Shown: in pieces, positions 1,325 through 37,387 of the stretch
Layout: each line of letters starts with the position of its first letter
How positions within the stretch are numbered: position 1 is the first letter of the stretch
NCBI GenBank assembly: GCA_038230355.1
Contig: JBBRNK010000014.1
Coordinates: forward strand, 24,747-88,746
Direction: 5' to 3'
Origin: Mycobacteriales bacterium
GTDB lineage: Bacteria > Actinomycetota > Actinomycetes > Mycobacteriales > SCTD01
Length of the DNA stretch: 64,000 nucleotides
The notes under the pieces: model-generated
Databases searched by the model: none
What the model was told of the DNA's origin: nothing
The model's input: only the letters and a program-made list of their open reading frames with translations
Translations under genes and position numbers: made by a program

Positions 1325-1424
1325 CCACGTGCTCCTTCAGGACGGGCTCGGATGTGGCCGAGCAAAACACTGCAATCAGGTAGGGAAATAGGGTACGACG
1401 AACCGGTGTCGTCAGCCAGCGGGG

Positions 1425-2470: not shown

Positions 2471-2478
2471 GACAGTAG

Positions 2479-19973: not shown

Positions 19974-20735
19974 TCAGCGACTCAAGACGATCCGACGAAG
20001 GGGGACCGCGACCCGGTGGCCGACCCAGTTCGCCACCACCCGGCGGGCCGCGGCCAGCCGTTCAGGCGCGACCTCGGGAAGGTAGAGGGAGTCAAGCAGC
20101 AGATCCGCGCGGGCGGCCGTGTCGACGTCGAACGTGAACGCGCGGGCACTGTCGTCGACGACGCGAAGGCCGGCTACGTCAGGGAAGTCGACCAGCTCGG
20201 CATCGTTGGGGTAGCCCAGTCCACGGACCCGAAGTGCCACCAGGAGCCGCCCGTAGCGCAGCACGTCTGCGAGCGGGAGCGGCCCCGTGGCTGGCAGGGT
20301 CGCCACAAGCACACCACCGGGACGTAGAACCCGGCTGACCTCCACCAGGGTCTCGCGCAGCGGCACCAGCATCAGCGCCATCGACACGACGACCGCGTCG
20401 ATGCAGGCATCTGGCAGTGGCAGTCGCGTCGCGTCGGCCCGGACGACCGGGACACCGCGGGTCGCCGCGCGGGCCAGCTCCGCCGCCGACAGGTCGATCC
20501 CGACGTACGAGGTGGGGGTGAGCTCATCACGCAGCGGGGCGCTGCCGCAGCACAGGTCCAGGACCCGCCCCCCGGCAGGGACAGCCTGACCGGCCCAGGC
20601 GTAGGGCGTGAGGCCAGCTGCGAAGGCAAGCGACAGCAGGTCCTCGGTGATGCCCGGCCGCTCCTGGTGGAAGCCCGCGACATAGCCGGCCCAGTCGGTC
20701 ATGGGATCAGCAGCTGGTCTCGGAAGCCATGGCAA
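19974..20735 (-). CDS. class I SAM-dependent methyltransferase
   Basis: 253 aa. Motif I VLDLCCGSAPL, then post-I IDLS and a later GGVLV. Confidence 0.8.
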   Translation of the reverse strand: MPWLPRPAADPMTDWAGYVAGFHQERPGITEDLLSLAFAAGLTPYAWAGQAVPAGGRVLDLCCGSAPLRDELTPTSYVGIDLSAAELARAATRGVPVVRADATRLPLPDACIDAVVVSMALMLVPLRETLVEVSRVLRPGGVLVATLPATGPLPLADVLRYGRLLVALRVRGLGYPNDAELVDFPDVAGLRVVDDSARAFTFDVDTAARADLLLDSLYLPEVAPERLAAARRVVANWVGHRVAVPLRRIVLSR

Positions 20736-20745
20736 TGGTCACGAG

Positions 20746-22161
20746 CTACCCCCCGAGCCGGGTCACGACATGCTTGACCCGGGTGTAGTCCCGCAGGCTG
20801 TACGCCGACAGGTCACTCCCCCAGCCGCTGCTTGCGTAGCCCCCGTGGGGCATCTCGCAGGCCAGCACCGAGTGGCAGTTCACCCAGACCGCACCGAAGT
20901 CGAGGGCCTTCGCGCAGCGGGCCGCGGCGCTCGCCGAGGTCGTCCAGACCGACGCCGCCAGGCCGTAGTCGGTGGCGGCCGCCGTACTCAGGGCTTCGGC
21001 CTCGTCGGCGACCTGCGTCACCGAGACGACCGGACCGAAGACCTCCTCGCGGGCCAGCTCGTCCTCGGGCCGCACGCCCACGACGACGGTTGGAGGGTAG
21101 AAGAAACCGGCCCGGTCCAGCGGCGCGCCACCGGCGACGACCTCGACGTGGGGGCCGCGGCGGTCGACCAGCCCGGCAACCCTGGCCAGCTGGCTCGCGT
21201 TGTTGAGGGCTCCGTAGTAGCCGCCCTCATCGGGGCCGCCGGTCCGCATGGCCTTGGCGCCGGCGGCCAGCCGCTCCACGAGGGCGTCGTGGATCCCCTC
21301 GGAGGCAAGGACTTTCGTCGCTGCCGTGCACGACTGACCTGCGTTGTAGTAGCCGATGTCGAGGATCCCCTGAACGGTCAGGTCGAGGTCGGCGTCGTCG
21401 AGGACGAGCACCGGAGCCTTGCCTCCGAGCTCGAGGTGCAGCCGCTTGAGTCCCACAGCCGAGGCCGCCACGACCTCGCGGCCGGCACGTACCGACCCGG
21501 TCAGGGCGACCATCGCCGGCACCGGGTGGCGGACCATCGCCTCACCCGTACCCCGGTTGCCGCAGACGACGTTGAGGACGCCGGGAGGCAGGTGCTCAGC
21601 GCCGAGCTCGGCCAGCATGAGCGGCGTGACCGGGGTCGTCTCGGCGCTCTTGAGGACCACGGTGTTGCCCGCCGCGACGGCGGGGGCCCACTTCCAGGTG
21701 GCCATCATGAGCGGGTAGTTCCAGGGCGTGATCTGCGCGACGACCCCGACCGGCTCGCGGCGCATCACGCTGGTGAAGCCGACGACGTACTCCCCGCTCG
21801 CAATGCCCTCAGGCGCCCTGGACTGCCCTGCGGCGGACCGGATCACATCCAGGACGTGAGGCATCTCGGCCCGCATCGCCTCCCGGGGCTTGCCGGTGTT
21901 GCGGCACTCGGCGTCGACGAACTCCTCGGCCCTGTCCTCGAGGGCCTGCGCCAGCCGGAGCAGGGCCAACATCCGCGCCGAGGGCGGGGTGTCCCGCCAG
22001 CCGGGGAAGGCGGCGGCAGCGGCGGCGAACGCTCCGTCGAGGTCCTCCGGGCCCGCCACCGGCGCGACGTCGTAGCCCCGTCCGGTTGCCGGGTCGAGGA
22101 TCTCGGTGGTCGCTGCGGCCAGGGGGGTCCGGCGAGATCCGCCGTAGAAGTGATGGAGCAC
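20746..22161 (-). CDS. NAD(P)-dependent aldehyde dehydrogenase
   Basis: 471 aa. ITPWNYP, ELGGKAP and catalytic Cys in NAGQSCTA. Confidence 0.9.
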   Translation of the reverse strand: MLHHFYGGSRRTPLAAATTEILDPATGRGYDVAPVAGPEDLDGAFAAAAAAFPGWRDTPPSARMLALLRLAQALEDRAEEFVDAECRNTGKPREAMRAEMPHVLDVIRSAAGQSRAPEGIASGEYVVGFTSVMRREPVGVVAQITPWNYPLMMATWKWAPAVAAGNTVVLKSAETTPVTPLMLAELGAEHLPPGVLNVVCGNRGTGEAMVRHPVPAMVALTGSVRAGREVVAASAVGLKRLHLELGGKAPVLVLDDADLDLTVQGILDIGYYNAGQSCTAATKVLASEGIHDALVERLAAGAKAMRTGGPDEGGYYGALNNASQLARVAGLVDRRGPHVEVVAGGAPLDRAGFFYPPTVVVGVRPEDELAREEVFGPVVSVTQVADEAEALSTAAATDYGLAASVWTTSASAAARCAKALDFGAVWVNCHSVLACEMPHGGYASSGWGSDLSAYSLRDYTRVKHVVTRLGG

Positions 22162-22170
22162 GTACCGACT

Positions 22171-23712
22171 CTAGGTCCGGGCTCGCAGGGCCTGCTTGTC
22201 GGTCTTCCCGACGCCGTTGCGGGGGAGCGACTCGACCAGCTCGACGACCTTGGGGGCGGCGTAGTCGGCCATCCCCTCGCGGACCCACGCCCGCACCTCG
22301 GCAGGGGTCACGGGCGCACGCACGACGAGGTAGGCCGCGATGACCTCTCCCCCCAGCGCGTCGGGGATGCCGACAACGGCCGCGTCCTCGATGAGGGGGT
22401 GCCGTCGGAGCAGCTCCTCGAGCTCTGCCGAGAACACCTTCGTGCCACCGCGGTTGATCATGTCCTTGCTGCGGTCGAGGACCGTCACGAAGCCGTGCTC
22501 GCAGACCCGGACGATGTCGCCGGTGTCGAACCACCCGTCGATGATCGCGGCGGCGGTGGCCTCCCCGTCCCCTGCGTAGCCGGTCGTCACCAACGAGCCA
22601 CGCAGCCACAGCTCACCCGCTTCGCCTTCCCTGCAGGGCTTCCCGCTCTCGTCGCGGACCTCGGCCTGCATGCAGTCCAGTGGCCGGCCGACCGTCCCGG
22701 CGTGCTCGGCGAAGTCCTCGTCGCGCAGGATGCAGCCCGGCGAGTGCGTCTCGGACAAGCCATAGACGTCGTGCAGGCGCACGCCCGGCAGGGCAACCCG
22801 GAGCCCGTCCTGCAGGTCCAAGGGGAACGGCGCACCCCCGGCAGCCACCCGTGACAACCGTGGCAGGTCATCCAGGCCGGCCCGCAGGGCGAGCCGCCAC
22901 CAGCTCGGCACGGCGTAGGCCCAGGTGACGCCCTCCCGCCGCAGCAGCTCGACGTACTCGCGCGGACTCTGCGAGTCGACGAGCACCAACCGCGCACCGG
23001 CGAGCATCGCCGGCAGCACGTGGGCATGCATCGCCGAGATGTAATACATCGGAAACAGCACGGCCGTGACGTCGTCCGGGCCGAGGGACAGCACCCGCTG
23101 GTAGCTCATCCCGGAGTGCACCGACGCGCGATGCACGACCTGCGACGCCTTCGGCCGCCCCGTCGTCCCCGACGTGAACACCACCTGGTACGTCGCGTCC
23201 TCGGCAAGCCCCGACGGGCCTTCGGCCCAGGACCGCTCGGGTGCCTCCATCAGGACCGCCGCGAGCGGCTCGGCGCCCGAGAGGTGGTCCAGGAAGGGCT
23301 TGGACGCCAGCGTCAGCCGGGTCTTCATGTGCTCGACCATGTAGGACCATTGCGGCGGCGCGAGGCGGGTGTTCAGGCCCACCATCACACAGCCCACGCG
23401 GGCGCAGGCAAGCAGCAGCACGGCGAGGTCGACGGTGTTGCCACTTGCTACTGCGACGGCGACGCCGGGCTCTAGACCCCTGGCACGCAGGGAGTCGGCG
23501 GCGCGCTCGACCCGGTCGGCGAACTGCCGCCAGCTCAGGTGAAGGTCCCCGTCGGTCCAGCCCGGGCGGTCACCGTGCAGGCGCACCGCCCGGTCCAGGG
23601 CGTCGACGACGGTCGCCGGCCGTCGGGCGTACGACAGGGCAGGTGCACCAAGCCACTGCTCGATGGCGACCGGGTCGCCGGGTCGGTCGTCGAGGTCGTG
23701 GAGCGCTGCCAT
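22171..23712 (-). CDS. AMP-dependent synthetase/ligase
   Basis: 513 aa. FTSGTTGRPKAS, YGLSET, GWFDTGD and a C-terminal GKTDK. Confidence 0.85.
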   Translation of the reverse strand: MAALHDLDDRPGDPVAIEQWLGAPALSYARRPATVVDALDRAVRLHGDRPGWTDGDLHLSWRQFADRVERAADSLRARGLEPGVAVAVASGNTVDLAVLLLACARVGCVMVGLNTRLAPPQWSYMVEHMKTRLTLASKPFLDHLSGAEPLAAVLMEAPERSWAEGPSGLAEDATYQVVFTSGTTGRPKASQVVHRASVHSGMSYQRVLSLGPDDVTAVLFPMYYISAMHAHVLPAMLAGARLVLVDSQSPREYVELLRREGVTWAYAVPSWWRLALRAGLDDLPRLSRVAAGGAPFPLDLQDGLRVALPGVRLHDVYGLSETHSPGCILRDEDFAEHAGTVGRPLDCMQAEVRDESGKPCREGEAGELWLRGSLVTTGYAGDGEATAAAIIDGWFDTGDIVRVCEHGFVTVLDRSKDMINRGGTKVFSAELEELLRRHPLIEDAAVVGIPDALGGEVIAAYLVVRAPVTPAEVRAWVREGMADYAAPKVVELVESLPRNGVGKTDKQALRART

Positions 23713-23763
23713 GGCCGGTCAGTCTGCCAGGTCGAGTCGGTCGTCGGTGGTGGCGACGGAGGG

Positions 23764-24180
23764 TCAGGTGACGACCAGGTCCGCCTTCATGTTGCCGTGG
23801 AAGTCACAGGTGATCGAATACTTGCCTGGCTTCGCGGGCGCGGTGAGGGTGGCGGTGGCGCCGGGTTGGACGACGAGGCCCGGCATGCCCTTGAGGGTGA
23901 CCGTGTGCGCGGTTCCGTCGGCGTTCTTGACCATGACGGTGCTGCCGGCCTTGACCGAGGAGGGCACGGTGTACATGAAGTTCTTGATGGTGAGCACGGC
24001 AGCCGAGGCGGTGGCGGGTGCCGTCGTCTCGGTTGCCGGTGCGCTGGTGGTGGCCGACGTCGGGGCCGAGGCCGGGCTGCTGGCCGTGGGTGTGGTGGCG
24101 GTCGTGGTGCCGGAGCACCCGGCCAGCACGGCGGTCGCGGCGAGGGGGAGCAGGAGCGAGCTGAGCTGACGGGGCGTCAT
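23764..24180 (-). CDS. cupredoxin (plastocyanin/azurin-like) lipoprotein
   Basis: 138 aa from ATG 24180. Lipobox AVLAGCSG, a Thr/Ser/Pro/Ala linker, then type-1 Cu ligand pattern AHTV...CDFHGNM. Confidence 0.8.
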   Translation of the reverse strand: MTPRQLSSLLLPLAATAVLAGCSGTTTATTPTASSPASAPTSATTSAPATETTAPATASAAVLTIKNFMYTVPSSVKAGSTVMVKNADGTAHTVTLKGMPGLVVQPGATATLTAPAKPGKYSITCDFHGNMKADLVVT

Positions 24181-24203
24181 GGGGGCCTTTCGTGGGGGGC
24201 AGG

Positions 24204-24887
24204 TCAGAGCAGGTGTGCGAAAGCGACCACGTTGTCGAGGTAGTGACCGGTCTTTCTGTCGAAGCCGCCGCCGCAGGTGATCAGCCGCAACTCGGCGCGC
24301 TGGGTGGTGTCGCCGTAGACCGCGCTCGTCGGGAAGCGGTCCTTGGGGTAACGGGCGACCTTGTCCACCATGAAGCGTGCAGTGCTGCCGTCGGCGCGCC
24401 CGACGGTAACCGTCGCCCCGGGCCGGAGCGCCCCGAGCTGGTAGAAGATGCCGGGCCCGTTGGTGCTGTCGACGTGCCCGGCGATGACCGCGGGCCCGAA
24501 CTGGCCGGGGGCCGGCCCGTCGACGTACCAGCCGGCCTTGCCGAAGTCTGTGGGTACCTGCAGGCTGCCGTCGGCCTGCTTGCCGAGGTTGACGAGCGTC
24601 TTGCTGTCCACACCGATCGAGGCGATGGCGATGCTGACCGGGCGCGACCGGCTCAGGGTCTTGGCCGAGAAGCCGATGGCGTCCCGGGTGGTCCCCGACG
24701 TGGGTGGCGTGCCGGGGGCGCTGGGACCGGATGTGCTGGACGAAGCCGCGACCGGCGGCTGCGGCGGACCGCCACTGGGTTGTAGCCCCACGATGACCGC
24801 GGTCGTGCCGGCGACCCCGAGCGTGACCGTCACGGCCGCCGCGGCAAGTACACCGCGGCGGCCGTGGGGGGTTGCGAGAGTGCTCAC
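24204..24887 (-). CDS. class F sortase
   Basis: 227 aa. N-terminal TM anchor, Pro/Ser linker, His context VIAGHVD, active-site LRLITCGG. Its GTG start shares 1 nt with the upstream CHRD gene's stop (TAGTG). Confidence 0.8.
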   Translation of the reverse strand: MSTLATPHGRRGVLAAAAVTVTLGVAGTTAVIVGLQPSGGPPQPPVAASSSTSGPSAPGTPPTSGTTRDAIGFSAKTLSRSRPVSIAIASIGVDSKTLVNLGKQADGSLQVPTDFGKAGWYVDGPAPGQFGPAVIAGHVDSTNGPGIFYQLGALRPGATVTVGRADGSTARFMVDKVARYPKDRFPTSAVYGDTTQRAELRLITCGGGFDRKTGHYLDNVVAFAHLL

Positions 24888-25624
24888 TAGCTCCGGGCGC
24901 GGCGGGCAGCGAAAGCGCCCGTGCCGGCTGCGGCGAGCAGGCCGATGCCACCAAGGGCGAGCAGGCCCTCGTTCTGCGTCGGGGCGGTGCCACCGGCACC
25001 AGTGCCGGCGCCACCGGACGGCGACGCGGACAGCACGCCGCAGATCGCCGGGTCAGTGGCGGACGCGGGCAGCGCCGGGTTCAGGTCGCTCTTGGCCTGC
25101 GCCTTGGCACCGGTGTAGGAGACGCCGTGCACGACGACCAGGGCCTGGCCCTTCTCGATGGCGGTAGCGATCTCGGGAGCAACCGTGACGCCGCCCCGCA
25201 TGTACTGAATGCTGGTGCCGGAACCGAAGCGGTCCACGGCCAGCCCGCTGGTCGGGCTGGTGTCACCGGTCTTGGTCAGCGACACGACGACGGCACCATA
25301 TGCCGGGCCGCCCTCGGTCGTGCTCAAGCGGCCGTCGCCGTCCTTCTCATCGGACACGGCGGGGCACTCGTGACGGGCATCGGCGCCGAAGTGGATGTGG
25401 GCAGCGTGCGGACCGGCCGCCAGGCCGGAGGCGGCCAGCGTGAACTCGATCTTGTTGCCGGTGACGGTGACCATCGCCGTGCCGCTGCCGTTGGAGCCGT
25501 TCACGACGACAGGTGTGAGGTTGGCGGTGGCACTGCCATCGGCCCACGCCGTGCCGACACCGACGAAGGGGAGAGAAAGGGGAAGGGCGAGGACGAGCGG
25601 GGCAAGTCTCATCGAGCGGCGCAT
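24887..25624 (-). CDS. secreted CHRD-domain protein with C-terminal hydrophobic/basic anchor
   Basis: Signal peptide ...GVGTAWA/DGS. CHRD-like GPHAAHIHFG. C-terminal GLLALGGIGLLAAAGTGAFAARRARS is a sorting-signal-like tail, but no LPXTG precedes it. Alternative start at 25612. Confidence 0.7.
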   Translation of the reverse strand: MRRSMRLAPLVLALPLSLPFVGVGTAWADGSATANLTPVVVNGSNGSGTAMVTVTGNKIEFTLAASGLAAGPHAAHIHFGADARHECPAVSDEKDGDGRLSTTEGGPAYGAVVVSLTKTGDTSPTSGLAVDRFGSGTSIQYMRGGVTVAPEIATAIEKGQALVVVHGVSYTGAKAQAKSDLNPALPASATDPAICGVLSASPSGGAGTGAGGTAPTQNEGLLALGGIGLLAAAGTGAFAARRARS

Positions 25625-25699
25625 CTGTGCTCCAAAGTCGTGACGTGACAGCCGCTTCAGGCGGCCGTCTGAGTAGTTCTTCGCACCTACCCCCTGTTG

Positions 25700-25727
25700 C
25701 GGTTCATAAGCGCGGATGTATGAACCG
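25700..25727. promoter_or_regulatory. AT-rich 9-10-9 inverted repeat CGGTTCATA-N10-TATGAACCG
   Basis: Read directly from the sequence. Lies between tRNA-Ser (3' end at 25771) and the CHRD start (25624) on the minus-strand transcription path. Could be a tRNA terminator hairpin or an operator. Confidence 0.3.
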
Positions 25728-25770
25728 TCATGAGTACGAGGGACGTCTGACCTCGACCGGGTAGGGAGAG

Positions 25771-25859
25771 CGGAGGGTGTGGGGTTCGAACCCACGAGAC
25801 GGGATCAACCGCCTGGCCGCTTTCAAGGCGGCTGCACTAGTCCACTATGCGAACCCTCC
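25771..25859 (-). tRNA. tRNA-Ser(UGA): tRNA-Ser, anticodon UGA
   Basis: Manual cloverleaf: acceptor GGAGGGT/ACCCTCC, D-arm GCAT/GTGC, anticodon stem GCCGC/GCGGC with loop CTTGAAA, long variable arm AGGCGG..CCGTCT, T-arm GTGGG-TTCGAAC-CCCAC, discriminator G. CCA is not encoded. Confidence 0.9.
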
Positions 25860-25968
25860 AGGCCCCTGACTCACACCGCTGCCCTCGAAGAAGGGGGCGG
25901 AGCGTTTAGGGGGTGAAGCAGGAGACTACGTTCCCGCGGCCTTCCGCCGGGCTCTGGGCACACGGCCG

Positions 25969-28900
25969 TCACTGGCTGCCGTGGCCCGGTCCACCGCTTC
26001 GGTCGACCGGCTGGGACAACGGCAGGGCGGGACCTACGTCGCCGACCCACCCGCGCTCGGGGTCCAGGCGCCACAGTTGCCCGTCCGCTGGGTCCACGAC
26101 CTGCAGGGCGACCCAATCCCCGAGGACGAGGCGAGCGAGATCGGGTTGGCGGGAGAGCACGGCATCGACCGTCGAGGGCGGTGCGCACACGATCGCCAGC
26201 AGGCGCACCGGATCGTGCTGCGGGAGCCCGGTCCAGCGGCCACCGTCGGGTGCGTGCGCGGAGACTGCCTGCCACGGCAGGCCGATGCGCAGATCGCCCC
26301 GGACCCCGGTCAGGACTCCGGACAGCGCATGCTCGGTGCCCTCGGCCCCGATCACGATGTTGTGGGTGGTTTTGTCCCCCGCCCCGAAGCGTTCCGGGTC
26401 GACGGTGGAGCACCAGTAGGCCGAGCTGATCCATTGCGCGACCACCAGCGGCCCGGCCATGAGCGTTTCCAGCAGGGTCCCGTCGGGGTCGATGTCGGGT
26501 CGGTAGGACTGCAGGAATACGCGGCCACCCAGGTCGCTGTCGACGGTCAAGGAGCGAGGCCCGATCACCATGGCAGCATTGCCGGCCAGGCCCCACTCGG
26601 GTCGGACCTGCGCCCAGTCACCGGCGCGCCGGTCGAGTTGTCGCCTGAGGCGAGCCGATGATGCCGTCGGGTCCGCCTGGGGCAGGTCCTTGGCGCGCTC
26701 TCGGGCAACGCCGTCGCCGGCAACCTTCAGGTCCCTGACCAGGTGGGCGAGGGTGGATTCGGCGGCCACGTCGACGTCGAGGATCGTGACGCTGTCCCGA
26801 GTGGTGTCGTGCAGCGCAGCGACGAACTGCGTGCCGCGCACGTCCATGCCCCGCACGAACAGGCCCGCAACGACGCGGGGGTCGGACAGGACCTGCACCA
26901 TCGCGCGTGCGCTCACGTCACCGGACCGTCCGCCGCAGGCGCCACAGTCGTACGCCGCAAGGTGGGGGTTGTTGGTCGCGGCGCCACCGTGGCCGCACAG
27001 GACCACCAAGGGCGCCGGCTCGACCAACCCGGTGCTGCTCAGGAAGGCAGCGGCAAGGTCGACGAGTTCGGTGACACCGAAGTTTTCTGCTGACACCGCG
27101 CCGCCGTCGGGCCGGGGGGAGGAGAGGGAGTCCGGCGCCGTGATGACGTCAAGGGGGCCGCGGGTCGGCGCGCCTACAGCGTGTCGAAGGTCGGCGGCCC
27201 GGTGCGACCACCAGGCGGGCGCGGCGGTGCGCAGGGCGGCCAGCGGCCCCAGGACCCACCCGGACCCCTCCGCCAGGGTGAACGGCGTGAAGGGTCGAGC
27301 TTCCATGCCGTGCACGGCGTCGAAGGCCTCCGTGGTCGACCACGACCATCGACGCGGTGCCGCCGTCTCGCGAACGGTGCGGTCCGGGCGCAGGAGCACC
27401 GGGCACCGCTCGGAGACCGCCCCGGTGGGTGAGACGTGGCGCAGGGGCAGCCCAAAGAACCCGGCCGCGCCATAGGTCTCCCACGGTCCGGTCACCTCGA
27501 GCTGGCGGCGCAGCCGCTCGGAGCGAACGTCGATGCAGAGCACGACCTGGGCGTCGGGACCGCCGGGCGCTCGCGACGACACCCCGATGCCACCCCCACC
27601 GCCGGCAAGCTCTGCAGCTCGGGCCTGCACCCCCCGGACAAGGGGACGCCGCACAGCGCTCTCCCACACCTCCAGCCGAAGGCGTTCCACGCCGTACGAG
27701 ACGACCGTCGCGATCAGGGTCGTGAGCTCGTCGACGTCGCGCGCGTCGAGCCGCACGCCATCAACTTCGAGCTCGCGCAGGACGGCTGCCAGGTCTGGGC
27801 CCGGTCCAGGGTCGGCGGCGGCGGCGGCGGGACCTCGCGCAGGGTGGGTGAGCACGTCCAGCAGCCGCACCGACACGAGGTCGGCGTAGGCGTCCGCCCT
27901 CGCCCGGTCGCCCTGTTCCGCGATCACGCCGGGCAGGGCGACGCGTTGACGCAGCCTCCAGGCGACGTGCGCCGCCCACCCGGCACCCTCGGTGAGCAGC
28001 TGACCCAGCACCACCATCTCGGGTTCCCCGGACGGGTCGAGCGCCTCGAGCATGACCGCCACCGCGTCAACGGGATCGGCGGGCAGGGCTGTCGCGAGGT
28101 CCCGGGCACCGGTAACCCCGAGGCCGGCATCGAGGGCCGCGTCTGCTCGGGCGGCGGCCCAGACCCCGCCCGGCGCGGTCGGCCAGGCCGCGTCCCCGTA
28201 GACCCGGGCGAGCAGCAGGTCCGCGTACGCCGACGGCACACGTCGACTTTGCCTGCGGGGCCAGCCGTCGTGCAGCAGAACGGCGCGAACCACGTCCACT
28301 CGAGCGACCTTGCCACACAGGGGGGCACGTGGGTCGAGGAACTGCGCGCATCCCTGCAGAAGCGCCTCGTCGTCGATCCGCCCGGCCGACAGCGCGCGGC
28401 CGAACAGGTCTGCACCCGGGCCCGTGGCATTGCCCCAGACCCGTGCGGCCAGCGCCAGCGCGTCGTGGAACTCCAGGCACTCCAACGACGCGAGAGGGTT
28501 GGAGGCGACGAACGACTCGAGCGGCCAGGCCGGAGACACGATGTCGCCGGCTGCAAGCAGCAGGGCGCGGGTGCGCGCAGCCTGTTCGACTGACGGCCCG
28601 CTGGCCACCGCCGTCACAAGGTCAGGGTTGACCACCGGGGCCGACACCACCACCTGGCGCAGCGTCCGGGGGGGTAGGGACGTGGCCGCGACCGCGTCGA
28701 CGATCCAGCGGACGCCACCGGAGCGAGCTCGGCGGTCCAGCCACCAGAACGCAGCGCCGGCGGTGACCAGGAACAGCACGAGCAGGCTGACCTTCACAGC
28801 TCCGGTCTGGCCCCACGAGGGGGTGGACGAGGCCAACAGCCCGTCGGTGGCGGTGGTCAGCGCGCGCAGCCCCAGCAGGTAGCCCACCACGGCGAGCACC

Positions 28901-30099
28901 GTCACGGCTGTGGCTGCTGCATGGGCGCGCGTCCTGAGACGGTGTGCACCAAGCAGTGCGGAGCCCAACGCGGTCGCCGCCAGGATCACCGGAAGTGCGG
29001 CGGCCGGACCCACCAAGAGCGGCGAGCCCCACGGACCAGGAACCACTGCAGCGGCGGCGACCACGCCCACGGCTGCCGCCACACCCACGATGGTGCGCCG
29101 ACCACCCACGAGCGGAGGCGGAGCGACCCCGCGCCGGGCCCGCTCGACCGCGCCACCCGCACCGAGGAACAGCGACGCCTTCCACATCCCGTGGCCGACG
29201 AGGTGGGCCAGGGCGGCTGCCGGCAGGCCGAGCGCGACCTGCACGCCGAGATAGCCCATCTGTGCTGTCGTCGATCCGGCCAGTCTGCCTTTGAGGTCGG
29301 GGCGGGTCCGGACCTGCGCGGTACCCATCAGCGCAGTCGCCACCGCCAGCCCCAGAAGCACACCACGGGCTGTCGCCGAGGGCGCGAGCACCGGCCACAG
29401 CAGCAACCCGAGCACCCCGACCCCGTTGACCAGTCCTGCATGCAGCAGTGCACTCACCGGAGAGGGAGCCTCGGCGGTCTCCGGCAGCCATCGATGGGCC
29501 GGCACGAGGGCGCTGCGCGCGACACCAGCGGCCACCACGAGCAAGGCGAGCACGGTCACCGTGGAGGCAGGTGCAGAGGAGACCGCGGCAGGTAGGCCGT
29601 CCAGCCGCAGTGTGTGCAGCTGAACCCCTGTCACCACCACCGCGGCCCACAGCGCGGCATCACCCACCAGCAGCCGGGAGGTCACGATGAGGGACGAGCG
29701 GCGGGCGTCCACGGTGCCCGTGTGGCCGACCAGCGCCGCCACTGCCAGCCCGCCCACCGTCCAACCCAGCGCGAGCTGCACCAGGCTCGGCGCCACGACC
29801 GCCGAGACCAGGGCGACGACCCCGACCACCTCGAGGGCGGCGAACCGGGCCAGACGGGGCTGTCCTACGAGGTTGCGGGCCGCATACGCGGCGACAACCG
29901 CACCGATCCCCGAGACGAGGACCAGCAGGAGCCAGGAGACCAGGCCACCGACCACGCCGAACGGCGACGTGCCGAGACGCCCCAGGTCCAGCAGGACCGG
30001 CGTCCAGGCGAAGGGATGGACGACGGCCACGGGCAGTAGCACGAGGACGCCGGCCAGCAGGGCCACCAGCAGGTTCCGCGCGAAGCGAAGCAGTAACAT
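25969..30099 (-). CDS. dabBA: fused DabB-DabA inorganic-carbon transporter homolog (NuoL/MrpA-like proton-conducting module + DUF2309 module in one ORF)
   Basis: Uninterrupted 1376 codons from ATG 30099. The N-terminal ~470 aa carry HRWLPETAEAPSPVSALLHAG and HLVGHGMWKASLFLGAG (NuoL-like). The C-terminal ~880 aa carry SPAWPLESFVASNPL, VLCIDVRSERLRR, LCGHGGAATNNPHLAAYDCGACGG and WAQVRPEWGL (DUF2309/DabA hallmarks). The domain junction is near nt 28630. Confidence 0.85.
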   Translation of the reverse strand: MLLLRFARNLLVALLAGVLVLLPVAVVHPFAWTPVLLDLGRLGTSPFGVVGGLVSWLLLVLVSGIGAVVAAYAARNLVGQPRLARFAALEVVGVVALVSAVVAPSLVQLALGWTVGGLAVAALVGHTGTVDARRSSLIVTSRLLVGDAALWAAVVVTGVQLHTLRLDGLPAAVSSAPASTVTVLALLVVAAGVARSALVPAHRWLPETAEAPSPVSALLHAGLVNGVGVLGLLLWPVLAPSATARGVLLGLAVATALMGTAQVRTRPDLKGRLAGSTTAQMGYLGVQVALGLPAAALAHLVGHGMWKASLFLGAGGAVERARRGVAPPPLVGGRRTIVGVAAAVGVVAAAAVVPGPWGSPLLVGPAAALPVILAATALGSALLGAHRLRTRAHAAATAVTVLAVVGYLLGLRALTTATDGLLASSTPSWGQTGAVKVSLLVLFLVTAGAAFWWLDRRARSGGVRWIVDAVAATSLPPRTLRQVVVSAPVVNPDLVTAVASGPSVEQAARTRALLLAAGDIVSPAWPLESFVASNPLASLECLEFHDALALAARVWGNATGPGADLFGRALSAGRIDDEALLQGCAQFLDPRAPLCGKVARVDVVRAVLLHDGWPRRQSRRVPSAYADLLLARVYGDAAWPTAPGGVWAAARADAALDAGLGVTGARDLATALPADPVDAVAVMLEALDPSGEPEMVVLGQLLTEGAGWAAHVAWRLRQRVALPGVIAEQGDRARADAYADLVSVRLLDVLTHPARGPAAAAADPGPGPDLAAVLRELEVDGVRLDARDVDELTTLIATVVSYGVERLRLEVWESAVRRPLVRGVQARAAELAGGGGGIGVSSRAPGGPDAQVVLCIDVRSERLRRQLEVTGPWETYGAAGFFGLPLRHVSPTGAVSERCPVLLRPDRTVRETAAPRRWSWSTTEAFDAVHGMEARPFTPFTLAEGSGWVLGPLAALRTAAPAWWSHRAADLRHAVGAPTRGPLDVITAPDSLSSPRPDGGAVSAENFGVTELVDLAAAFLSSTGLVEPAPLVVLCGHGGAATNNPHLAAYDCGACGGRSGDVSARAMVQVLSDPRVVAGLFVRGMDVRGTQFVAALHDTTRDSVTILDVDVAAESTLAHLVRDLKVAGDGVARERAKDLPQADPTASSARLRRQLDRRAGDWAQVRPEWGLAGNAAMVIGPRSLTVDSDLGGRVFLQSYRPDIDPDGTLLETLMAGPLVVAQWISSAYWCSTVDPERFGAGDKTTHNIVIGAEGTEHALSGVLTGVRGDLRIGLPWQAVSAHAPDGGRWTGLPQHDPVRLLAIVCAPPSTVDAVLSRQPDLARLVLGDWVALQVVDPADGQLWRLDPERGWVGDVGPALPLSQPVDRSGGPGHGSQ

Positions 30100-30107
30100 A
30101 CGAACCA

Positions 30108-30121
30108 CAATACACGTATTG
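30108..30121. promoter_or_regulatory. perfect 6-2-6 palindrome CAATAC-AC-GTATTG in the dabBA/wHTH divergent intergenic region
   Basis: Read directly in an unusually AT-rich stretch. It overlaps a minus-strand TATTGT -10-like hexamer (30107..30112) that ends 7 nt before the dabBA ATG. Confidence 0.4.
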
Positions 30122-30178
30122 CAATTCAAGTGTCTGGGATCTGGCTCGATCGGTCATGATGAAGGGGTGAACAACAAC

Positions 30179-30472
30179 GTGGCACCGGAGGTGGGCCACG
30201 TGGTCAGGTCGTGGACGCTGTTGACCAACCACGGCCGACTGCTCCTGCTCATCTCAGCCAACCCCGAGGCGCGCCTGCGTGACCTTGCAGAGCAGGCCGG
30301 GATCACCGAACGTGCGGCAAGCTCGATCGTGGGTGACCTCGGAGAAGCCGGCTACGTGACCTGGACGCGGGTCGGACGCCGTAACAGCTACGTCGTCCAC
30401 CCAGACCGGCCGTTCCGTCACCCTGCCGAGGCCGGCCACGACATCGGCGAGCTCCTGTCGCTGTTCCCCTGA
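30179..30472 (+). CDS. small winged-helix (ArsR/MarR-like) transcriptional regulator
   Basis: About 97 aa. LRDLAEQAGITERAASSIVGDLGEAGYVTWTRVGRRNSY is an HTH plus wing. Divergent from dabBA. Alternative GTG starts at 30167 and 30191. Confidence 0.65.
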   Translation: MAPEVGHVVRSWTLLTNHGRLLLLISANPEARLRDLAEQAGITERAASSIVGDLGEAGYVTWTRVGRRNSYVVHPDRPFRHPAEAGHDIGELLSLFP

Positions 30473-30497
30473 CCCAGCGCCGCTGCGGAAAGACGCC

Positions 30498-30739
30498 ATG
30501 TCAGCGCATGACCACCACCACGGTCTCACCGCAGCACTGGCCACCCGGCACGGCAAGCACCCGCTGATCGCCCCGTACCTCGCCGACCCGGTGACGCCGT
30601 CAAGGGCATCACCGACCCCGAGACCCTGCACGAGGCCATCGCTACCGCCTACCGGCTCGAAGGAGTTCAGCTAGGCAACCCCTGCTCCACCTGCGGCACA
30701 CCGACGGCGGTCAAGGTGGACCTCGAGCACATCCGCTGA
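30498..30739 (+). pseudogene. frameshifted remnant of a small conserved ORF
   Basis: ATG 30498 gives MSAHDHHHGLTAALATRHGKHPLIAPYLADP.., then drifts into low-complexity sequence. A different frame continues with protein-like ..VKGITDPETLHEAIATAYRLEGVQLGNPCSTCGTPTAVKVDLEHIR ending at TGA 30737-30739. A single indel would join the two. Confidence 0.35.
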
Positions 30740-31134
30740 TCGTGCACGTAGGGACGGCCGGGGAAGTCGACGACGGGTGGGCGCGCAACATCCCGCCCCA
30801 GGCAGTGCACATGGGAGCTGCCTGCTGGCCGGGGCCCCTGACGCTCGTCCGCACCCGGGGGCCTCGATCGGGCGACCACGCAATCGGAGGTCAGACCACT
30901 TTCGGGTTGCGCGTGCCCTCGCACCCGACCGCACACGAGCTACTCCTGGCGTTCGGCGCAGTCGTGGCAGCTCCGTGTGCTGACCGCTTCGGTCGGGCCT
31001 CGCCGACGGCCGTCGAGCTCGTCCTGGACGAGCTGGGCACCTCCCTGGACTCGCGGCGCAACGTCGTACTCGCAGGCGTCGATTCCCATGTCGGTGTCGA
31101 GTCGACGATCATGGACTGCACGGGCGCCAGCCCC
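30715..31134 (+). pseudogene. N-terminally truncated, degenerate YrdC/Sua5 (TsaC)-domain remnant, in frame with plsY
   Basis: GGPRAHPLIVHV...WPGPLTLV...FGLRVPSHP...AAPCADRFGRASPT...VESTIMDCTG parallels the second half of the YrdC domain (KGRPxxNPLIVHV / WPGPLTL / RxPxHP / PSANxSG / ESTIxD). The N-terminal half (PTDTxYGL) is absent, there is no canonical start upstream of GTG 30742, and the PSAN motif is altered. Confidence 0.5.
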
Positions 31135-31275
31135 ATGACGGCGCACTGGCCGCAGCCGTTCATGACGCCTATGTCGTGCCGCCCATGCCCCAAGCTGACG
31201 TGGGCACAGCTCTTGGCCCATGACCGGCGTACCGCCCGTCGGAGCCGCGTCCGGCGGCGTGGGAGGCTCTCGGTC

Positions 31276-31890
31276 GTGACCCTGACCCGCTCGGCCGCAG
31301 CCGTCGCAGCCGGCTACCTCCTGGGGACCGTGCCCGCAGCCGACCTCGCCGGCCGGCTCGTCGGGGTGAGCGTCCGGACCGCCGGCACCGGGAACCCCGG
31401 AGCCATCAACGCCTCCGTGCTGCTCGGCAAGCGCTGGGGCACGGCGGTCGCTGGCGTCGACATGGCAAAGGGCTGTGCGGCGGGGCTGCTCGGCCGGCAG
31501 GTCGGTCCGGCGACGGCCTACGCGACGGCGACGGCCGCGGTCGTGGGACATGTCTTCCCGGTCTGGTCGAGGTTCCAGGGGGGCAAGGGCGTCGCGACGT
31601 CGTACGGCGCGGTGGTGGGGGTCTTCCCGGCCTACGCGGTGCCGGACCTGCTGGTGGCCGGGGCCGCTGCCCGGCTGACCAAGGATCCGCGCCGCGCCAA
31701 CGACATCTCCAGTGCGGCGTGGACCGGGGCGGCGTTGCTCTGGTGGGCAAGGCGCCTGCCGAACCTCTGGGGCCCGACGCCGACGGTCGCGCTCCCCCTG
31801 CACGCAGCCGCCACCAGCGCCCTGATCAGCTGGCGCTTCCGCCAGCCGGAGCGGGTCAGCGGCGGCATGCGGCTCGGGGACCCGGCGTGA
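31276..31890 (+). CDS. plsY: acyl-phosphate:glycerol-3-phosphate acyltransferase
   Basis: GTG 31276 with GGGAGG 9-10 nt upstream. AAGYLLGTVP, TGNPGAINA and FQGGKGVATSYG match PlsY motifs. The ORF as computed (30742..31890) reads through from the YrdC remnant. Confidence 0.8.
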   Translation: MTLTRSAAAVAAGYLLGTVPAADLAGRLVGVSVRTAGTGNPGAINASVLLGKRWGTAVAGVDMAKGCAAGLLGRQVGPATAYATATAAVVGHVFPVWSRFQGGKGVATSYGAVVGVFPAYAVPDLLVAGAAARLTKDPRRANDISSAAWTGAALLWWARRLPNLWGPTPTVALPLHAAATSALISWRFRQPERVSGGMRLGDPA

Positions 31891-32393
31891 CCGACCGGAT
31901 GCCCCTGCCCGGGTCGCTGTCGATCGGTCGGGACTGCTTCGCCTGCGGGCTCGACAACGACCGAGGGCTCCACATCCCTTACGAGAAGGTCGGCGACCGG
32001 GTCGAGGCCCTGTTCACCCTCGGCGAGGAGTTCTCCGGTGCACCTGCCTATGTGCACGGAGGGGTGATCATGACGGTGCTCGACGAGGGCATGGCCTGGG
32101 CCACGATCGCGCTGCGCTCCCGGTTCGCTGTCACCACCGAGTTCACCTCCGCCTTCAGACGGCCGGTGCTCGTCGGCCAGCCGCACACGCTGGTCGCCGA
32201 GTGCGGGCTTCTCGAGGAGGACGGCCGCACCCTGCGCGTGACGGCCAGCATCAGCCGCGCCGACGGCAAGCTGTGCACGCAAGCGAGCGCCCGCTACTAC
32301 GCGATGACCGTCGAGGAGACCGCCGCCTCGGCCGGGATCCCGGCGCTGCCCCAGGAGATGACGCGGGCCTTCGGCTTCGCCGAGGGCTCGTGA
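31887..32393 (+). CDS. PaaI-family hotdog thioesterase
   Basis: GTGA overlap with plsY (alternative ATG at 31899). Has a CFACG N-terminal zinc-ribbon-like element, and the YVHGGVIMTVLDEGMAWA core is typical of PaaI/4HBT thioesterases. Confidence 0.75.
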   Translation: MTDRMPLPGSLSIGRDCFACGLDNDRGLHIPYEKVGDRVEALFTLGEEFSGAPAYVHGGVIMTVLDEGMAWATIALRSRFAVTTEFTSAFRRPVLVGQPHTLVAECGLLEEDGRTLRVTASISRADGKLCTQASARYYAMTVEETAASAGIPALPQEMTRAFGFAEGS

Positions 32394-33607
32394 CCTGGGC
32401 CGTCATCGGTGCCGGCTACACCGGGATCGCCGTAGCCGCAGCCCTTCTGGACGCGGGTTTGGGCGTCGAGGTGCTCGACCGGCGACCCGTCGTCGGGGGC
32501 CTGTGGGTCGACGGGACCTACGACTCGGTCCGCCTCATCACCAGCCGCAAGGTAACCGCCTTCGACGGCCGCCCGCTCCCGAACGGACCGACCTTCCCCA
32601 CCGGCCCGGAGCTGCTCGCCTACCTCACGGGGACGGCAACGAGCACCGGGGTGCTCGACCACTTCCGGGGGTCCAGCCAGGTCCTGTCAGTCACCCCCGA
32701 GGGCGCCGGCTGGGCGGTGACCACCGCGACCGGCCACACGTCGTACGACGGAGTCGTGCTGGCGACGGGTCTGTTCCAGGTGCCTCGGATCCCCGTGCTG
32801 CCAGGCGTTCTGATCATCCCCCAGCTGCACACGTCGGCCTACCGGCACCCGGGGCAGCTCGGTGACGACGTCCTGGTGGTCGGGCTCGGCAACTCGGGGG
32901 CCGACGTCGCGCAGGACGCCGTCGCCGCCGGGAAACGGGTCACCCTCGCGGTCTCCCGCGGCCGACACGTCGTCCCCCGCAGGATCCTGGGCTCTCCGGT
33001 CGTCGAGCTGCGCCGCCCTGCCCTGCTGCCCGAGCTCCCGATGCGGCTGGGGCTGGACGCCCTGGTGCGCATGGGCTCCTGGCGCTCAGGTCGACTGCCC
33101 GCGCCACGGCACCTGGTCCTGGCCGAGTCCCCGGTGGTGCACTCCGCCCTGCTGCCGCTGGTCGCCTCGCGCGCGGTCACCGTGCGGGCGGGGGTGAGCG
33201 CACTGTGCGGCAACGAGGTGGCCTTCAGCGACGGGAGCACCAAGGGTTTCGACACCGTCGTGTGGGCCACCGGCTACGACTACGACCTTCCCATCGACCG
33301 CGCTCACCTCGACGGCGGGGCCGGGGGCTACCGCTCAGCGCCACCGAGGCTGGTCGGGGGTGCCTGGTCGGCGGTCTCCCGAGGCCTGGCGGCCGTCGGC
33401 CACCGGGAGCCGCGAGGCGGTCGCGGGCCGTACCTGTCCGCACTGGCCGGGCTGGTGGCGGCGGGGGCCCGCGCCCAGGGCTGGGTGGACGAACCCGTTG
33501 GCCGACACCTGGCCGACACGGTCCGACCGACGGCTTCGGTGTTCGTCGACAACGCCCCGGAGATCAGGACCCTGCGCCTGCTGACGGCAGCCGCAAACCG
33601 GCTCTGA
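32390..33607 (+). CDS. flavin-containing (class B-like) monooxygenase / NAD(P)-binding oxidoreductase
   Basis: GTGA overlap start. FAD fold VIGAGYTGIAVA...VGGLW and a second dinucleotide fold VVGLGNSGADVA. Confidence 0.75.
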   Translation: MTWAVIGAGYTGIAVAAALLDAGLGVEVLDRRPVVGGLWVDGTYDSVRLITSRKVTAFDGRPLPNGPTFPTGPELLAYLTGTATSTGVLDHFRGSSQVLSVTPEGAGWAVTTATGHTSYDGVVLATGLFQVPRIPVLPGVLIIPQLHTSAYRHPGQLGDDVLVVGLGNSGADVAQDAVAAGKRVTLAVSRGRHVVPRRILGSPVVELRRPALLPELPMRLGLDALVRMGSWRSGRLPAPRHLVLAESPVVHSALLPLVASRAVTVRAGVSALCGNEVAFSDGSTKGFDTVVWATGYDYDLPIDRAHLDGGAGGYRSAPPRLVGGAWSAVSRGLAAVGHREPRGGRGPYLSALAGLVAAGARAQGWVDEPVGRHLADTVRPTASVFVDNAPEIRTLRLLTAAANRL

Positions 33608-34436
33608 GGGCCGCCCCTGCGACGGGGTGGAAGACGCAGCCGACGGTACCGATCCCCACGTGCACGGCGACCGAAGGTCCCATGTCGTAGCGCACGAGCT
33701 GCTCCACGTCGCAGGCTTCGCGCAGTCCGCTCTCGAGGGCATCGGCGAGGGCAGCCGCGCCCAGATGACCGACTCCGACACGGAGGCGCACACCCGCGGA
33801 CTGCTCCCGCACATAGCCGACGAGAGCCTTCACTGCCCCGTCGACGTCACCGACCCGACCGACCGGGGTCATCCCGCCCTCAGCCAGGGCCAGCACCGGG
33901 ATCGCATCGGCGGCGGCGGACCGCGCCAGCCGACCTCCACCGACGGCCAGCGCGAGCGTGCCCACGACGAAGACGTTGCCCATCGCCTCCGCCGTGCGAC
34001 GGGCGACGTCGGCCGCCGCGAGGACGTCCCCACCGGCGGCAAGCACCTCACCCGCAGCCCATACGCACAAGGACACCGGGAAGCTCGCCGACCGGGTGTC
34101 GACGACCTCGACGGGGACCCGAGCCATCGAGGCTGCCAGCCGCGCCGAGTTGGCGACCCCGGAGATGTCCCCCCCGGCGTGGATCGACAGCACCTGCGTC
34201 GCCCCCTCGTCGGCGGCCCGCTCGTACGCTGCGAGGACCTGCCCAGGGCTCGGGGTTGACGAGCCCACAACGGCACCACGCTCGAGGGCTGCCGTGACCC
34301 CGGCCAGGTCGAGGTCCACGCCTTCCAGATGGGCGACACCGTCGACGACCACGGTCATCGGTACGACGAGGACGCCGTACTCCTGCTGCAGGGCAACGGG
34401 AAGCTGGCTGTTGGAGTCGGTGACGAGGCCGATCAC
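33564..34436 (-). CDS. DegV-family fatty-acid-binding protein (FakB-like)
   Basis: 290 aa. N-terminal IGLVTDSNSQLP, STPSPGQ, and a C-terminal GPSVAVHVGIGTVG. The 3' end overlaps the convergent monooxygenase gene by 44 nt. Confidence 0.85.
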   Translation of the reverse strand: MIGLVTDSNSQLPVALQQEYGVLVVPMTVVVDGVAHLEGVDLDLAGVTAALERGAVVGSSTPSPGQVLAAYERAADEGATQVLSIHAGGDISGVANSARLAASMARVPVEVVDTRSASFPVSLCVWAAGEVLAAGGDVLAAADVARRTAEAMGNVFVVGTLALAVGGGRLARSAAADAIPVLALAEGGMTPVGRVGDVDGAVKALVGYVREQSAGVRLRVGVGHLGAAALADALESGLREACDVEQLVRYDMGPSVAVHVGIGTVGCVFHPVAGAALRAGLRLPSAGAGS

Positions 34437-35782: not shown

Positions 35783-35791
35783 CTGGCCACC

Positions 35792-37201: not shown

Positions 37202-37260
37202 GCGTGCCCTCCAGGGCAATCGTCGGTGACAGTCGTCGCTGCAAGGCTTCGCTGGAAAGC

Positions 37261-37279
37261 AGAGTGCCAGATGCACTCT
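37261..37279. promoter_or_regulatory. 7-5-7 inverted repeat AGAGTGC-CAGAT-GCACTCT in the WS/DGAT-qor divergent intergenic region
   Basis: Perfect inverted repeat read directly from the sequence; 60 nt upstream of the WS/DGAT start and 109 nt upstream of the qor start. Confidence 0.25.
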
Positions 37280-37387
37280 CACGGGCGGGGCGGCATGACC
37301 CGGGTGCACCGACGGGCGCCCGCGGGGGGCTAGTAGAACGCCACCTTGCGGCCCTAGCGAGAGCTGGCCCCTCCTAGGGTGAGAGCC

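Follow-up and report, generated by a model that had tools for sequence, protein, structure and literature searches.

A fused gene for a DAB-type CO2 pump in a Mycobacteriales bacterium, with a predicted leaderless promoter and a candidate winged-helix repressor

Results

We analysed a 64,000-nucleotide stretch of DNA from a Mycobacteriales bacterium of the SCTD01 lineage (assembly GCA_038230355.1, contig JBBRNK010000014.1, positions 24,747 to 88,746), hereafter the window, in which the two subunits of a DAB-type CO2 pump are encoded by one gene on the minus strand, dabBA. Read from its sequence, this gene most likely encodes a single-polypeptide energy-coupled CO2 hydratase, that is, an inorganic-carbon pump. 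Such one-polypeptide pumps of the DAB type are a kind already described, characterised in one species and widespread. We consider it quite likely that this DAB/DAC pump is made from a leaderless mRNA and is under probable repression by the product of a small divergent gene coding for a winged helix-turn-helix (wHTH) protein. If anything here is new, it may be this conserved combination of a wHTH gene, a dyad and a leaderless promoter.

One open reading frame joins a DabB and a DabA module

A first, sequence-only reading of this DNA had proposed one unbroken open reading frame (ORF) starting at ATG 30099, and the ORF listing and translation bear this out: the frame is uninterrupted down to the stop codon at 25969..25971 and encodes 1376 amino acids (aa), in which every peptide quoted in that reading is present. 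The mechanical listing prolongs the frame to TTG 30129; ATG 30099 is the start in an identical public gene call (P0001, 100%, 1376 aa) and in all homologues. Against Pfam, this one protein matches both Proton_antipo_M (PF00361, 3.2e-28) and DabA/DUF2309 (PF10070, E = 9.5e-166, 553.8 bits against a cutoff of 25), and the second profile is covered almost completely, from position 4 to 747 of 747. In NCBIfam the N-terminal part gives NuoL/MrpA-type matches, all of them sub-threshold, as expected for a DabB. The DabB module lies ahead of the DabA module in the frame and the two stand almost end to end, essentially without a linker. The data support the covalent fusion of DabB to DabA with an intact beta-carbonic-anhydrase-like zinc site that had been proposed.

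Table 1. Coordinates of the dabBA gene, its domains and key residues, the divergent spacer and the wHTH gene (window numbering).
Feature	Position	Strand	Basis
Fused dabBA gene	25969..30099	-	1376 codons and stop; PF00361 and PF10070; P0001 identical
DabB (NuoL/MrpA-like) membrane module, ~aa 1-475	28675..30099	-	phmmer with 9rd0_B, AlphaFold2, Foldseek, hydropathy
PF00361 core, aa 103-320	29140..29793	-	Pfam
Arg195, at the TM7 (transmembrane helix 7) position of DabB2 Lys235 / NuoL Lys229	29515..29517	-	9rd0_B alignment
DabA (DUF2309, beta-carbonic-anhydrase-like) cytoplasmic module, ~aa 495-1376	25972..28617	-	Pfam; phmmer with 9rd0_A
PF10070 match, aa 517-1330	26110..28551	-	Pfam
Zn ligand Cys855 (DabA2 C351), in CIDVRSE	27535..27537	-	9rd0_A alignment; invariant in A1
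Zn ligand His1037 (DabA2 H524), in GHG...DCGACGG	26989..26991	-	9rd0_A alignment; invariant in A1
Zn ligand Cys1052 (DabA2 C539), in GHG...DCGACGG	26944..26946	-	9rd0_A alignment; invariant in A1
Zn-site segment His1037 to Cys1052	26944..26991	-	9rd0_A alignment
Asp-Arg dyad D857, R859 (DabA2 D353, R355), both in CIDVRSE			Invariant in A1
Proton relay S860 (in CIDVRSE), H1097, D1102 (DabA2 S356, H585, D590)
Enlarged CO2 pocket, A879 (DabA2 A376)
L1171 (DabA2 L658), Leu in place of the beta-carbonic-anhydrase Gln
Glu944 (DabA2 Glu444), in the 'finger' helix pair predicted to insert into the membrane	27268..27270	-	9rd0_A alignment
-10 hexamer TATTGT, ending 7 nt before ATG	30107..30112	-	Sequence; family geometry
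-35-like AGACAC, 17-nt spacer to -10	30130..30135	-	Sequence
20-bp dyad, operator candidate, window copy ACACGTATTGCAATTCAAGT (+ strand)	30112..30131	.	Fills the -35/-10 spacer
14-bp perfect palindrome CAATAC-AC-GTATTG	30108..30121	.	Overlaps the -10 hexamer and the proximal dyad half
Small winged-helix gene, 101 aa from GTG 30167, candidate dabBA repressor	30167..30472	+	HTH_24; AlphaFold2; conserved neighbour

The fused architecture is common and already described

Two sets of relatives were used: the 120 best database matches (34-100% identity, 1123-1478 aa) and a survey with one genome per species, which gave 553 related loci, the best 80 of which were fetched and analysed. The sequence-only reading had recommended a query for single proteins carrying both domains; PF00361 and PF10070 occur together in 120/120 of the best homologues, several of which are annotated as 'putative inorganic carbon transporter subunit DabA' or 'Na-translocating system protein MpsB'. 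Among the best 80 of the 553 loci, about 55 have a single open frame, 1250-1500 aa long, that covers both a DabB-like and a DabA module. Nearly all of these are from Actinomycetota, and cultured carriers include Longivirga aurantiaca, Terrabacter tumescens, Actinotalea lenta, Phycicoccus jejuensis, Tessaracoccus antarcticus, Nocardioides taihuensis and N. zeae. The closest species-level relative, in a set of species representatives that excludes the window's own genome, is an Actinomycetales metagenome-assembled genome (MAG; locus L001) at 77% identity.

The same reading had taken the fused form to be undescribed, which is not the case. Desmarais et al. 2018/2019 (bioRxiv 10.1101/476713) already note that DabA and DabB are naturally fused in Acidimicrobium ferrooxidans, and a passage of PMC11934965 lists this fusion among characterised systems, under the one-subunit type 'CM' and with a length of 4149 bp; the source cited for it, there and in Lo et al. 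2026, is Schmid et al. 2021 (J Bacteriol 203:e0037721). In the relevant passages of Lo et al. 2026 (bioRxiv 10.64898/2026.03.13.711513, PMC13144422) it is the model for an engineered DabB2-DabA2 fusion, which has the same module order as the window protein, rescues carbonic-anhydrase-deficient E. coli no less well than the separate subunits do and was used for cryo-electron microscopy of DAB2; a fused pump can thus work in principle. The fusion being described in the literature, common, and annotated in databases, the novelty claim falls. That a fusion would fix stoichiometry or stabilise the complex is, in effect, what Lo et al. 2026 exploited.

Some members of the two sets are unexpected. 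A fused PF00361 and PF10070 protein of 1290 aa, 41% identical (P0060), is filed under the fungus Hyaloraphidium curvatum, where horizontal transfer or bacterial contamination is possible. Two loci carry an actinobacterial-type fused dabBA with a divergent wHTH gene that would not be expected from their titles: L024 ('Bifidobacterium breve' MAG) and L060 ('Jannaschia sp. R86511'), the latter titled as an alphaproteobacterium, which may reflect a wrong label or a transfer of the locus. Six Nitrospira MAG loci (L069, L070, L072, L073, L077 and L080) have frames of about 1450 aa with DabA (PF10070 in two stretches, 7.5e-252) behind some 580-620 N-terminal residues that match neither a Pfam domain nor DabB, and represent a different DabA architecture.

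The catalytic residues of DabA are conserved

The DabA module is complete, with a helical N-terminal domain and two beta-carbonic-anhydrase-like domains. Its residues 521-1337 align with residues 28-809 of DabA2 from Halothiobacillus neapolitanus (PDB 9rd0_A; phmmer, 1.5e-82). Residue equivalences were taken from alignments to the 9rd0 chains, in the numbering of Lo et al. 2026, and conservation from an alignment of 16 fused homologues (A1). Every functionally tested DabA2 residue has a counterpart in the window protein, and these counterparts are invariant or nearly so in A1. The full-length DabA brings together the Cys-His-Cys Zn site, the Asp-Arg dyad and a predicted finger glutamate that are found in DAB/DAC pumps. 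The zinc site claimed in the sequence-only reading stands as far as Cys855, His1037 and Cys1052 are concerned, which fall at the Zn-ligand positions; Asp857, which had been counted with them, belongs instead to the Asp-Arg dyad and lies outside the ligand set of the solved structure. In the finger, E944 within FTLAEGSG aligns with E444 within FTFVESAG of DabA2, and A943, E944 and G947 are invariant in A1. According to the part of Lo et al. 2026 that deals with this element, Glu444 of the finger completes the proton path in DAB2.

The membrane module is a DabB with an arginine in TM7

Residues 50-411 align with DabB2 (PDB 9rd0_B, 1.4e-25), and phmmer also returned NuoL/NdhF matches. The glutamate of NuoL TM5 is missing in the 9rd0_B alignment (T114 at the position of NuoL E144 and DabB2 I151), which is the DabB signature, and H220, H299, H303, K307 and D147 are retained. 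The module therefore has what characterises the membrane partner of a DAB/DAC pump: a NuoL-like PF00361 domain, conserved proton-path residues and no TM5 glutamate.

AlphaFold2 (AF2) modelling covered aa 1-520 and gave a model with a predicted local distance difference test score (pLDDT) of 89 and a predicted template modelling score of 0.90. It has about 15 TM helices up to 434-459; a short lateral helix (464-473) comes next, and after it the helices that open the DabA N-terminal domain. Because the helices end at 434-459, the 'four more hydrophobic helices' that had been placed after a module of about 470 aa are in fact TM12-15 of DabB itself, in agreement with hydropathy and the 9rd0_B alignment; in DAB2 these helices dock the DabA finger, according to the part of Lo et al. 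2026 that describes them. The best Foldseek matches of the module are NuoL/ND5/NdhF/MrpA. A Foldseek search of the PDB did not return 9rd0, an entry apparently missing from the searched set; the fold therefore speaks for a NuoL/ND5-like protein only, and it is by sequence that the module is assigned to DabB.

Arg195, at the TM7 position, pairs with Asp147 (DabB2 Asp185) in the 9rd0_B alignment. The residue is arginine in 107/107 fused homologues that matched a motif search among the 120 scanned, and details of proton conduction may therefore differ in these proteins. As a weaker point, the universal change from Lys to Arg could mark a mechanistic variant of the NuoL-type ion path in fused pumps.

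A promoter geometry typical of leaderless genes

GC content dips to 47.5% at 30080..30159, compared to ~70-78% in most flanking 80-bp windows, in agreement with the AT-rich spacer first noted between dabBA and the wHTH gene. The TATTGT hexamer ending 7 nt from the ATG is also where it had been described. A -10 element of the TAnnnT type lying 6-8 nt upstream of the start, with no room for a Shine-Dalgarno sequence, is the hallmark of a leaderless gene, and the window has TATTGT, 7 nt and ATG. We anchored the upstream sequences of 62 related loci on their start codons and found a TAnnnT hexamer 6-7 nt ahead of the ATG or GTG in 43 of them; in the wHTH-linked loci having the hexamer the distance is exactly 7 nt in 28/28, as in the window. 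At A/T frequencies of about 0.14 each, we estimate that chance would produce this geometry in a few per cent of loci. The suggestion of a leaderless transcript is supported by this comparison, and dabBA is probably transcribed as a leaderless mRNA from the predicted -10 element.

A scan of the divergent region for consensus sigma-70 promoters found none, because the TATAAT/TTGACA rule is too strict for a high-GC actinomycete. No riboswitch or leader element was found there with Rfam, whose only match above gathering score in 25500..30800 is the downstream tRNA.

A 20-bp dyad fills the promoter spacer

The family-conserved symmetry upstream of dabBA is a 20-bp dyad, ACAnGAA-N6-TTCnTGT, and wHTH-linked loci share the consensus ACAnGAA-N6-TTCnTG-TATTnT-N7-ATG. 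The best axis of symmetry lies at -22.5, where 62% of the pairs are complementary (other axes: median 23%). The pair -29/-16 appears as G:C, C:G and T:A, a compensatory change of the arms, and the arms are perfect over 9-11 bp in four loci (L006, L010, L013, L034) and over 7 bp in two more (L024, L063). With a -35-like (T)TGACA/AGACA on one side and the -10 element on the other, the dyad takes up the promoter spacer, the classical position of a repressor site. Allowing up to two mismatches, the pattern ACANGAANNNNNNTTCNTGT matches 45 times in the 1.14 Mb of fetched loci; about 38 of these matches lie directly upstream of dabBA, where we estimate about 4 by chance. In the 64-kb window there is a single match, at 30112..30131.

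The palindrome that had been put forward as operator, CAATAC-AC-GTATTG, is present and overlaps the -10 element as claimed, but it is not the symmetry that the family conserves most strongly. The window holds 363 perfect palindromes with 6-bp arms, so that 0.45 are expected per 79 bp, and only two have AT-rich arms. With such palindromes this frequent, the significance of this one rests on comparative evidence.

A subgroup of the loci without an adjacent wHTH gene has a different conserved upstream motif, TTGCAATACCTGAAnTGnAATGCG-TAnTAT-N6-ATG, which suggests that another regulator may act on the same leaderless gene. Nine fused loci of this kind (L017, L019, L030, L031, L035, L036, L041, L043 and L049) share cTTGCAATACCTGAAnTGnAATGCGcTAnTAT, followed by 6 nt and the ATG; this element holds two direct TGCAAT(A/G)C repeats. 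We looked for another divergent regulator at L035, where the ORFs gave no Pfam hits. The spacer of the window also contains TTGCAATAC.

The divergent gene encodes a minimal winged-helix protein

The sequence-only reading had described a small wHTH gene diverging from dabBA and starting at 30179. Its fold, orientation and end at 30472 are as described, but the start is uncertain between GTG 30167, 30179 and 30200. Homologues are about 101 aa long, and GTG 30167 is therefore favoured, giving a spacer of 67 bp rather than 79 bp. A conserved (C/G)AnnAT-N6-GTG at the wHTH start in the closest clade also favours it, and hints that the wHTH mRNA may be leaderless too. A conserved ATG-N5-GTGA string precedes the gene in the window (30155..30170, plus strand) and in L001-L004, L009 and L015. 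We considered that a mini-ORF of 3-4 codons, its TGA overlapping the GTG start, might provide translational coupling, and rejected it for the simpler -10-like (C/G)AnnAT 6 nt before the GTG.

In Pfam the protein matches HTH_24 (26.7 bits, cutoff 21.9), while MarR_2 (24.3 bits, cutoff 27) and MarR (17.3, cutoff 24.6) stay below threshold. AF2 (pLDDT 77) predicts for it a minimal winged helix, made up of a three-helix bundle (21-31, 37-44 and 48-61), a beta-hairpin wing (64-69 and 72-77) and one extra C-terminal helix. At 101 aa it does not have the MarR fold of ~140-150 aa with its dimerisation helices. Nor is there an ArsR/SmtB match above cutoff (NF033788 of NCBIfam, 19.9 bits against 55; an SmtB profile, E = 0.013) or a Cys-rich site in the family alignment. 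Foldseek and a PDB profile search returned generic MarR/SmtB/AspA cores only, with about 60 residues aligned at low rmsd (root-mean-square deviation). The protein is not a canonical MarR or ArsR. It belongs to a family of about 2,660 database members of ~101 aa, with the invariant motifs WTLLT.H.R.LLL, RLRD, TER, GRRN.Y and a C-terminal FRHPAEA.H.

A divergent homologue of this gene (46-82% identity) lies directly upstream of dabBA in about 38 loci across many families. The dyad motif is present in 24/32 loci with an adjacent wHTH gene and in 5/14 with none within ~6 kb, a moderate link between motif and regulator. In one locus (L083) the wHTH gene does not lie beside dabBA; there, the dyad, TAATTT, 7 nt and an ATG precede icd, directly upstream of the wHTH gene, which suggests that the motif may travel with the regulator. 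In this part of L083 (4523..4557 and 853..3552) the dyad-leaderless layout thus stands ahead of an isocitrate dehydrogenase gene, with a gene for phosphoenolpyruvate carboxylase, a bicarbonate user, nearby. In L082 a SulP/STAS transporter is found ~3.6 kb from the wHTH gene. We propose that the 101-aa protein probably represses dabBA, as a dimer that would occupy the 20-bp dyad between the -35 and -10 elements.

Proposed mechanism, role and genomic context

If the protein works like its solved homologue, the Halothiobacillus DAB2 complex, CO2 would diffuse into the cell and be hydrated at the buried zinc held by C855, H1037 and C1052, with the help of the Asp-Arg dyad (D857/R859). A flow of cations, most likely protons, through the membrane module and the finger glutamate E944 of DabA would make hydration one-directional, and bicarbonate would build up in the cytoplasm.

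Ten neighbouring genes were scanned (19974..38317), and none is a RuBisCO, carboxysome or autotrophy gene. They code for a methyltransferase, an aldehyde dehydrogenase, an acyl-CoA ligase, a sortase, a CHRD-domain protein, a Sua5/PlsY-like protein, a flavin monooxygenase, DegV, a pyridine-nucleotide disulfide oxidoreductase and a wax-ester synthase. By analogy with MpsAB of Staphylococcus, the most likely role of the pump would be to supply carboxylases with bicarbonate at ambient CO2.

The stop codon of dabBA is followed, 110 bp further along the same strand, by a tRNA-Ser gene (anticodon TGA; 25770..25859, minus strand). The mechanical 'CHRD' ORF (24887..25795) overlaps the 3' end of this gene, and its real start is therefore probably further downstream. 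Elsewhere in the window, a mechanical ORF of 2964 aa at 55078..63972 on the minus strand overlaps plus-strand ORFs with a GC content at third codon positions of 0.93-0.98, among them one of 1257 aa (58243..62016); the plus-strand reading looks real, and this may be a large repetitive or frameshifted gene.

Weighing alternative readings

Could the single frame be an artefact of assembly or sequencing, in which a lost stop or a frameshift joined adjacent dabB and dabA genes? The characterised DAB2 and MpsAB both consist of two polypeptides, and in three related MAG loci (L015, L018, L041) the modules lie in separate frames. Because the same fused frame is found in about 55 related genome loci, we exclude this explanation with hardly any reserve: these are independent genomes with continuous frames of similar length, some of them isolates with megabase-scale contigs, and residues across the junction are conserved in A1 (W429, P477 and TSLPP). 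The presence of both domains in every one of the best homologues points the same way. The separate frames of the three MAG loci, which are close relatives, are more simply read as MAG frameshifts; they are probably frameshifts or pseudogenes and not ancestral split genes. We also find it very unlikely, if less extremely so, that the protein works mainly as a Na+/H+-translocating, Mrp-like device acting on membrane potential, or as a pump coupled to Na+ rather than H+. The 'Na-translocating' name carried by some homologues would fit such a role, as would the use of sodium argued for MpsAB in a passage of Lo et al. 2026 and the TM7 arginine, which makes the ion path not identical to that of DabB2. 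However, the carbonic-anhydrase-like Zn site is complete and the CO2-pocket residues A879 and L1171 are conserved; MpsAB itself complements a carbonic-anhydrase mutant in the passage of PMC6689103 that concerns it, and DAB2 is reported in a part of Lo et al. 2026 to be Na+-independent and to fail to rescue a Na+-transporter mutant. Two observations do weigh against a DAB-type pump working as in DAB2: the TM7 lysine of NuoL and DabB2 is replaced in all fused homologues checked, and the nearest solved homologue is only modestly identical (by eye, about one third for DabA and one quarter for DabB).

Regulation leaves more room for other readings. It is unlikely that the operator is the 14-bp palindrome overlapping the -10 element instead of the 20-bp dyad. 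The palindrome is perfect in the window, where its AT-rich arms are rare, its axis (-15.5) is the second-best symmetry centre of the family (44%), and similar ATAC(G/A)TGTAT cores are seen in L053, L056 and L025. Yet the matching sequence in the closest relative, L001 (GATTCGTGTATCC), is non-palindromic, symmetry is clearly stronger at -22.5, and the apparent symmetry of the palindrome comes in part from the conserved -10 hexamer and the right half-site. A somewhat more serious alternative, although still not one we favour, is that dabBA is not under the control of the wHTH protein: the conserved element would be a mere promoter or the site of another factor, and the wHTH gene a conserved neighbour with a different or global role. 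The motif partly coincides with -35/-10 promoter bases, its association with the wHTH gene is only moderate, and the wHTH family is large; three of three inspected members on long contigs do not lie beside dabBA, and the family is therefore broader than its association with this gene. Against repression also count five loci with the motif and no wHTH gene within ~6 kb, eight with the wHTH gene and no good motif, the imperfect copy of the dyad in the window (two mismatches to the pattern, 7/10 pairs complementary) and the absence of a recognisable ligand-binding domain in the regulator. On the other hand, divergent adjacency is retained from 46% to 82% wHTH identity in many families, a promoter needs no dyad symmetry with compensatory changes, and in L083 the motif accompanies the wHTH gene outside the dabBA context. 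For these reasons, repression of dabBA by the wHTH protein through the 20-bp dyad is the reading that we keep.

Significance

Since a DAB-type pump is a small device that captures CO2 on its own, such pumps are being introduced into crops and industrial autotrophs. The natural one-gene fusion is the most convenient form of the pump, and with more than 100 natural variants in the family it is useful, if not new. The traits specific to the fused pumps, namely the change from Lys to Arg in TM7 and the module of wHTH gene, dyad and leaderless promoter, are minor ones. No regulator of an actinobacterial DabBA is described in the literature that we searched, and in that literature the wHTH-operator module appears to be undescribed. 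More speculatively, the ~101-aa wHTH proteins (WTLLT...GRRN.Y...FRHPAEA.H) might found an undescribed family of actinobacterial repressors that bind ACAnGAA-N6-TTCnTGT and set the expression of a leaderless CO2-pump gene by inorganic-carbon status, sensed as CO2/bicarbonate or as a metabolite linked to carboxylation; we put this forward tentatively, and regard it as doubtful in its full extent. If true, it would mean a CO2-responsive regulon in heterotrophic Actinomycetota. In any case, the cassette of regulator, operator and leaderless promoter offers a testable handle on CO2/bicarbonate sensing in Actinomycetota, and also a compact regulated expression module.

Comparison with known systems

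The candidate repressor resembles MarR and ArsR/SmtB repressors in its winged-helix core, its divergent gene and the location of the dyad in the -35/-10 spacer. It differs from MarR in its length of only ~101 aa, without the N- and C-terminal dimerisation helices, and from both families in having its own invariant C-terminal FRHPAEA.H motif and no recognisable ligand or metal site.

The MpsAB pair of S. aureus and the MpsAB-like pair of B. subtilis are of the DabB/DabA type and occur in non-autotrophs. MpsAB substitutes for carbonic anhydrase at atmospheric CO2, according to a passage of PMC6689103, which is the role we propose for the pump of the window. In contrast to the latter, MpsAB is made of two polypeptides, belongs to a Firmicute and has been proposed to be Na+-coupled. 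We know of no wHTH-dyad module for MpsAB of S. aureus or B. subtilis, although no test aimed at one was made.

DAB2 of H. neapolitanus (PDB 9rd0, 9rd8 and 9rd9) has two modules equivalent to those of the window protein, which come in the order of the engineered fusion 'Dab2'. Conserved between them are the Zn ligands, the Asp-Arg dyad, the S356/H585/D590 relay, A376, L658 and the finger Glu444, as well as the DabB signature (no TM5 Glu; His/His/Lys in TM11). DAB2 is natively encoded by two genes and made of two polypeptides, whereas the window protein is one. It has Lys235 in TM7 where the window protein has Arg195, the N-terminus of the latter is ~38 residues shorter, and identity is modest. 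DAB2 also operates with a carboxysome CO2-concentrating mechanism in an autotroph.

The 'CM' system of A. ferrooxidans is that of an acidophilic autotroph, while the gene of the window stands in a heterotroph-like context. The passages of papers citing that system make no mention of a wHTH gene or operator. As described in those passages, it shares with the window protein the union of membrane and cytoplasmic subunits in one polypeptide, its origin in the Actinomycetota, a DabA predicted to be cytoplasmic and a nearly equal gene length (4149 bp versus 4131 bp here), a likeness drawn from length and description.

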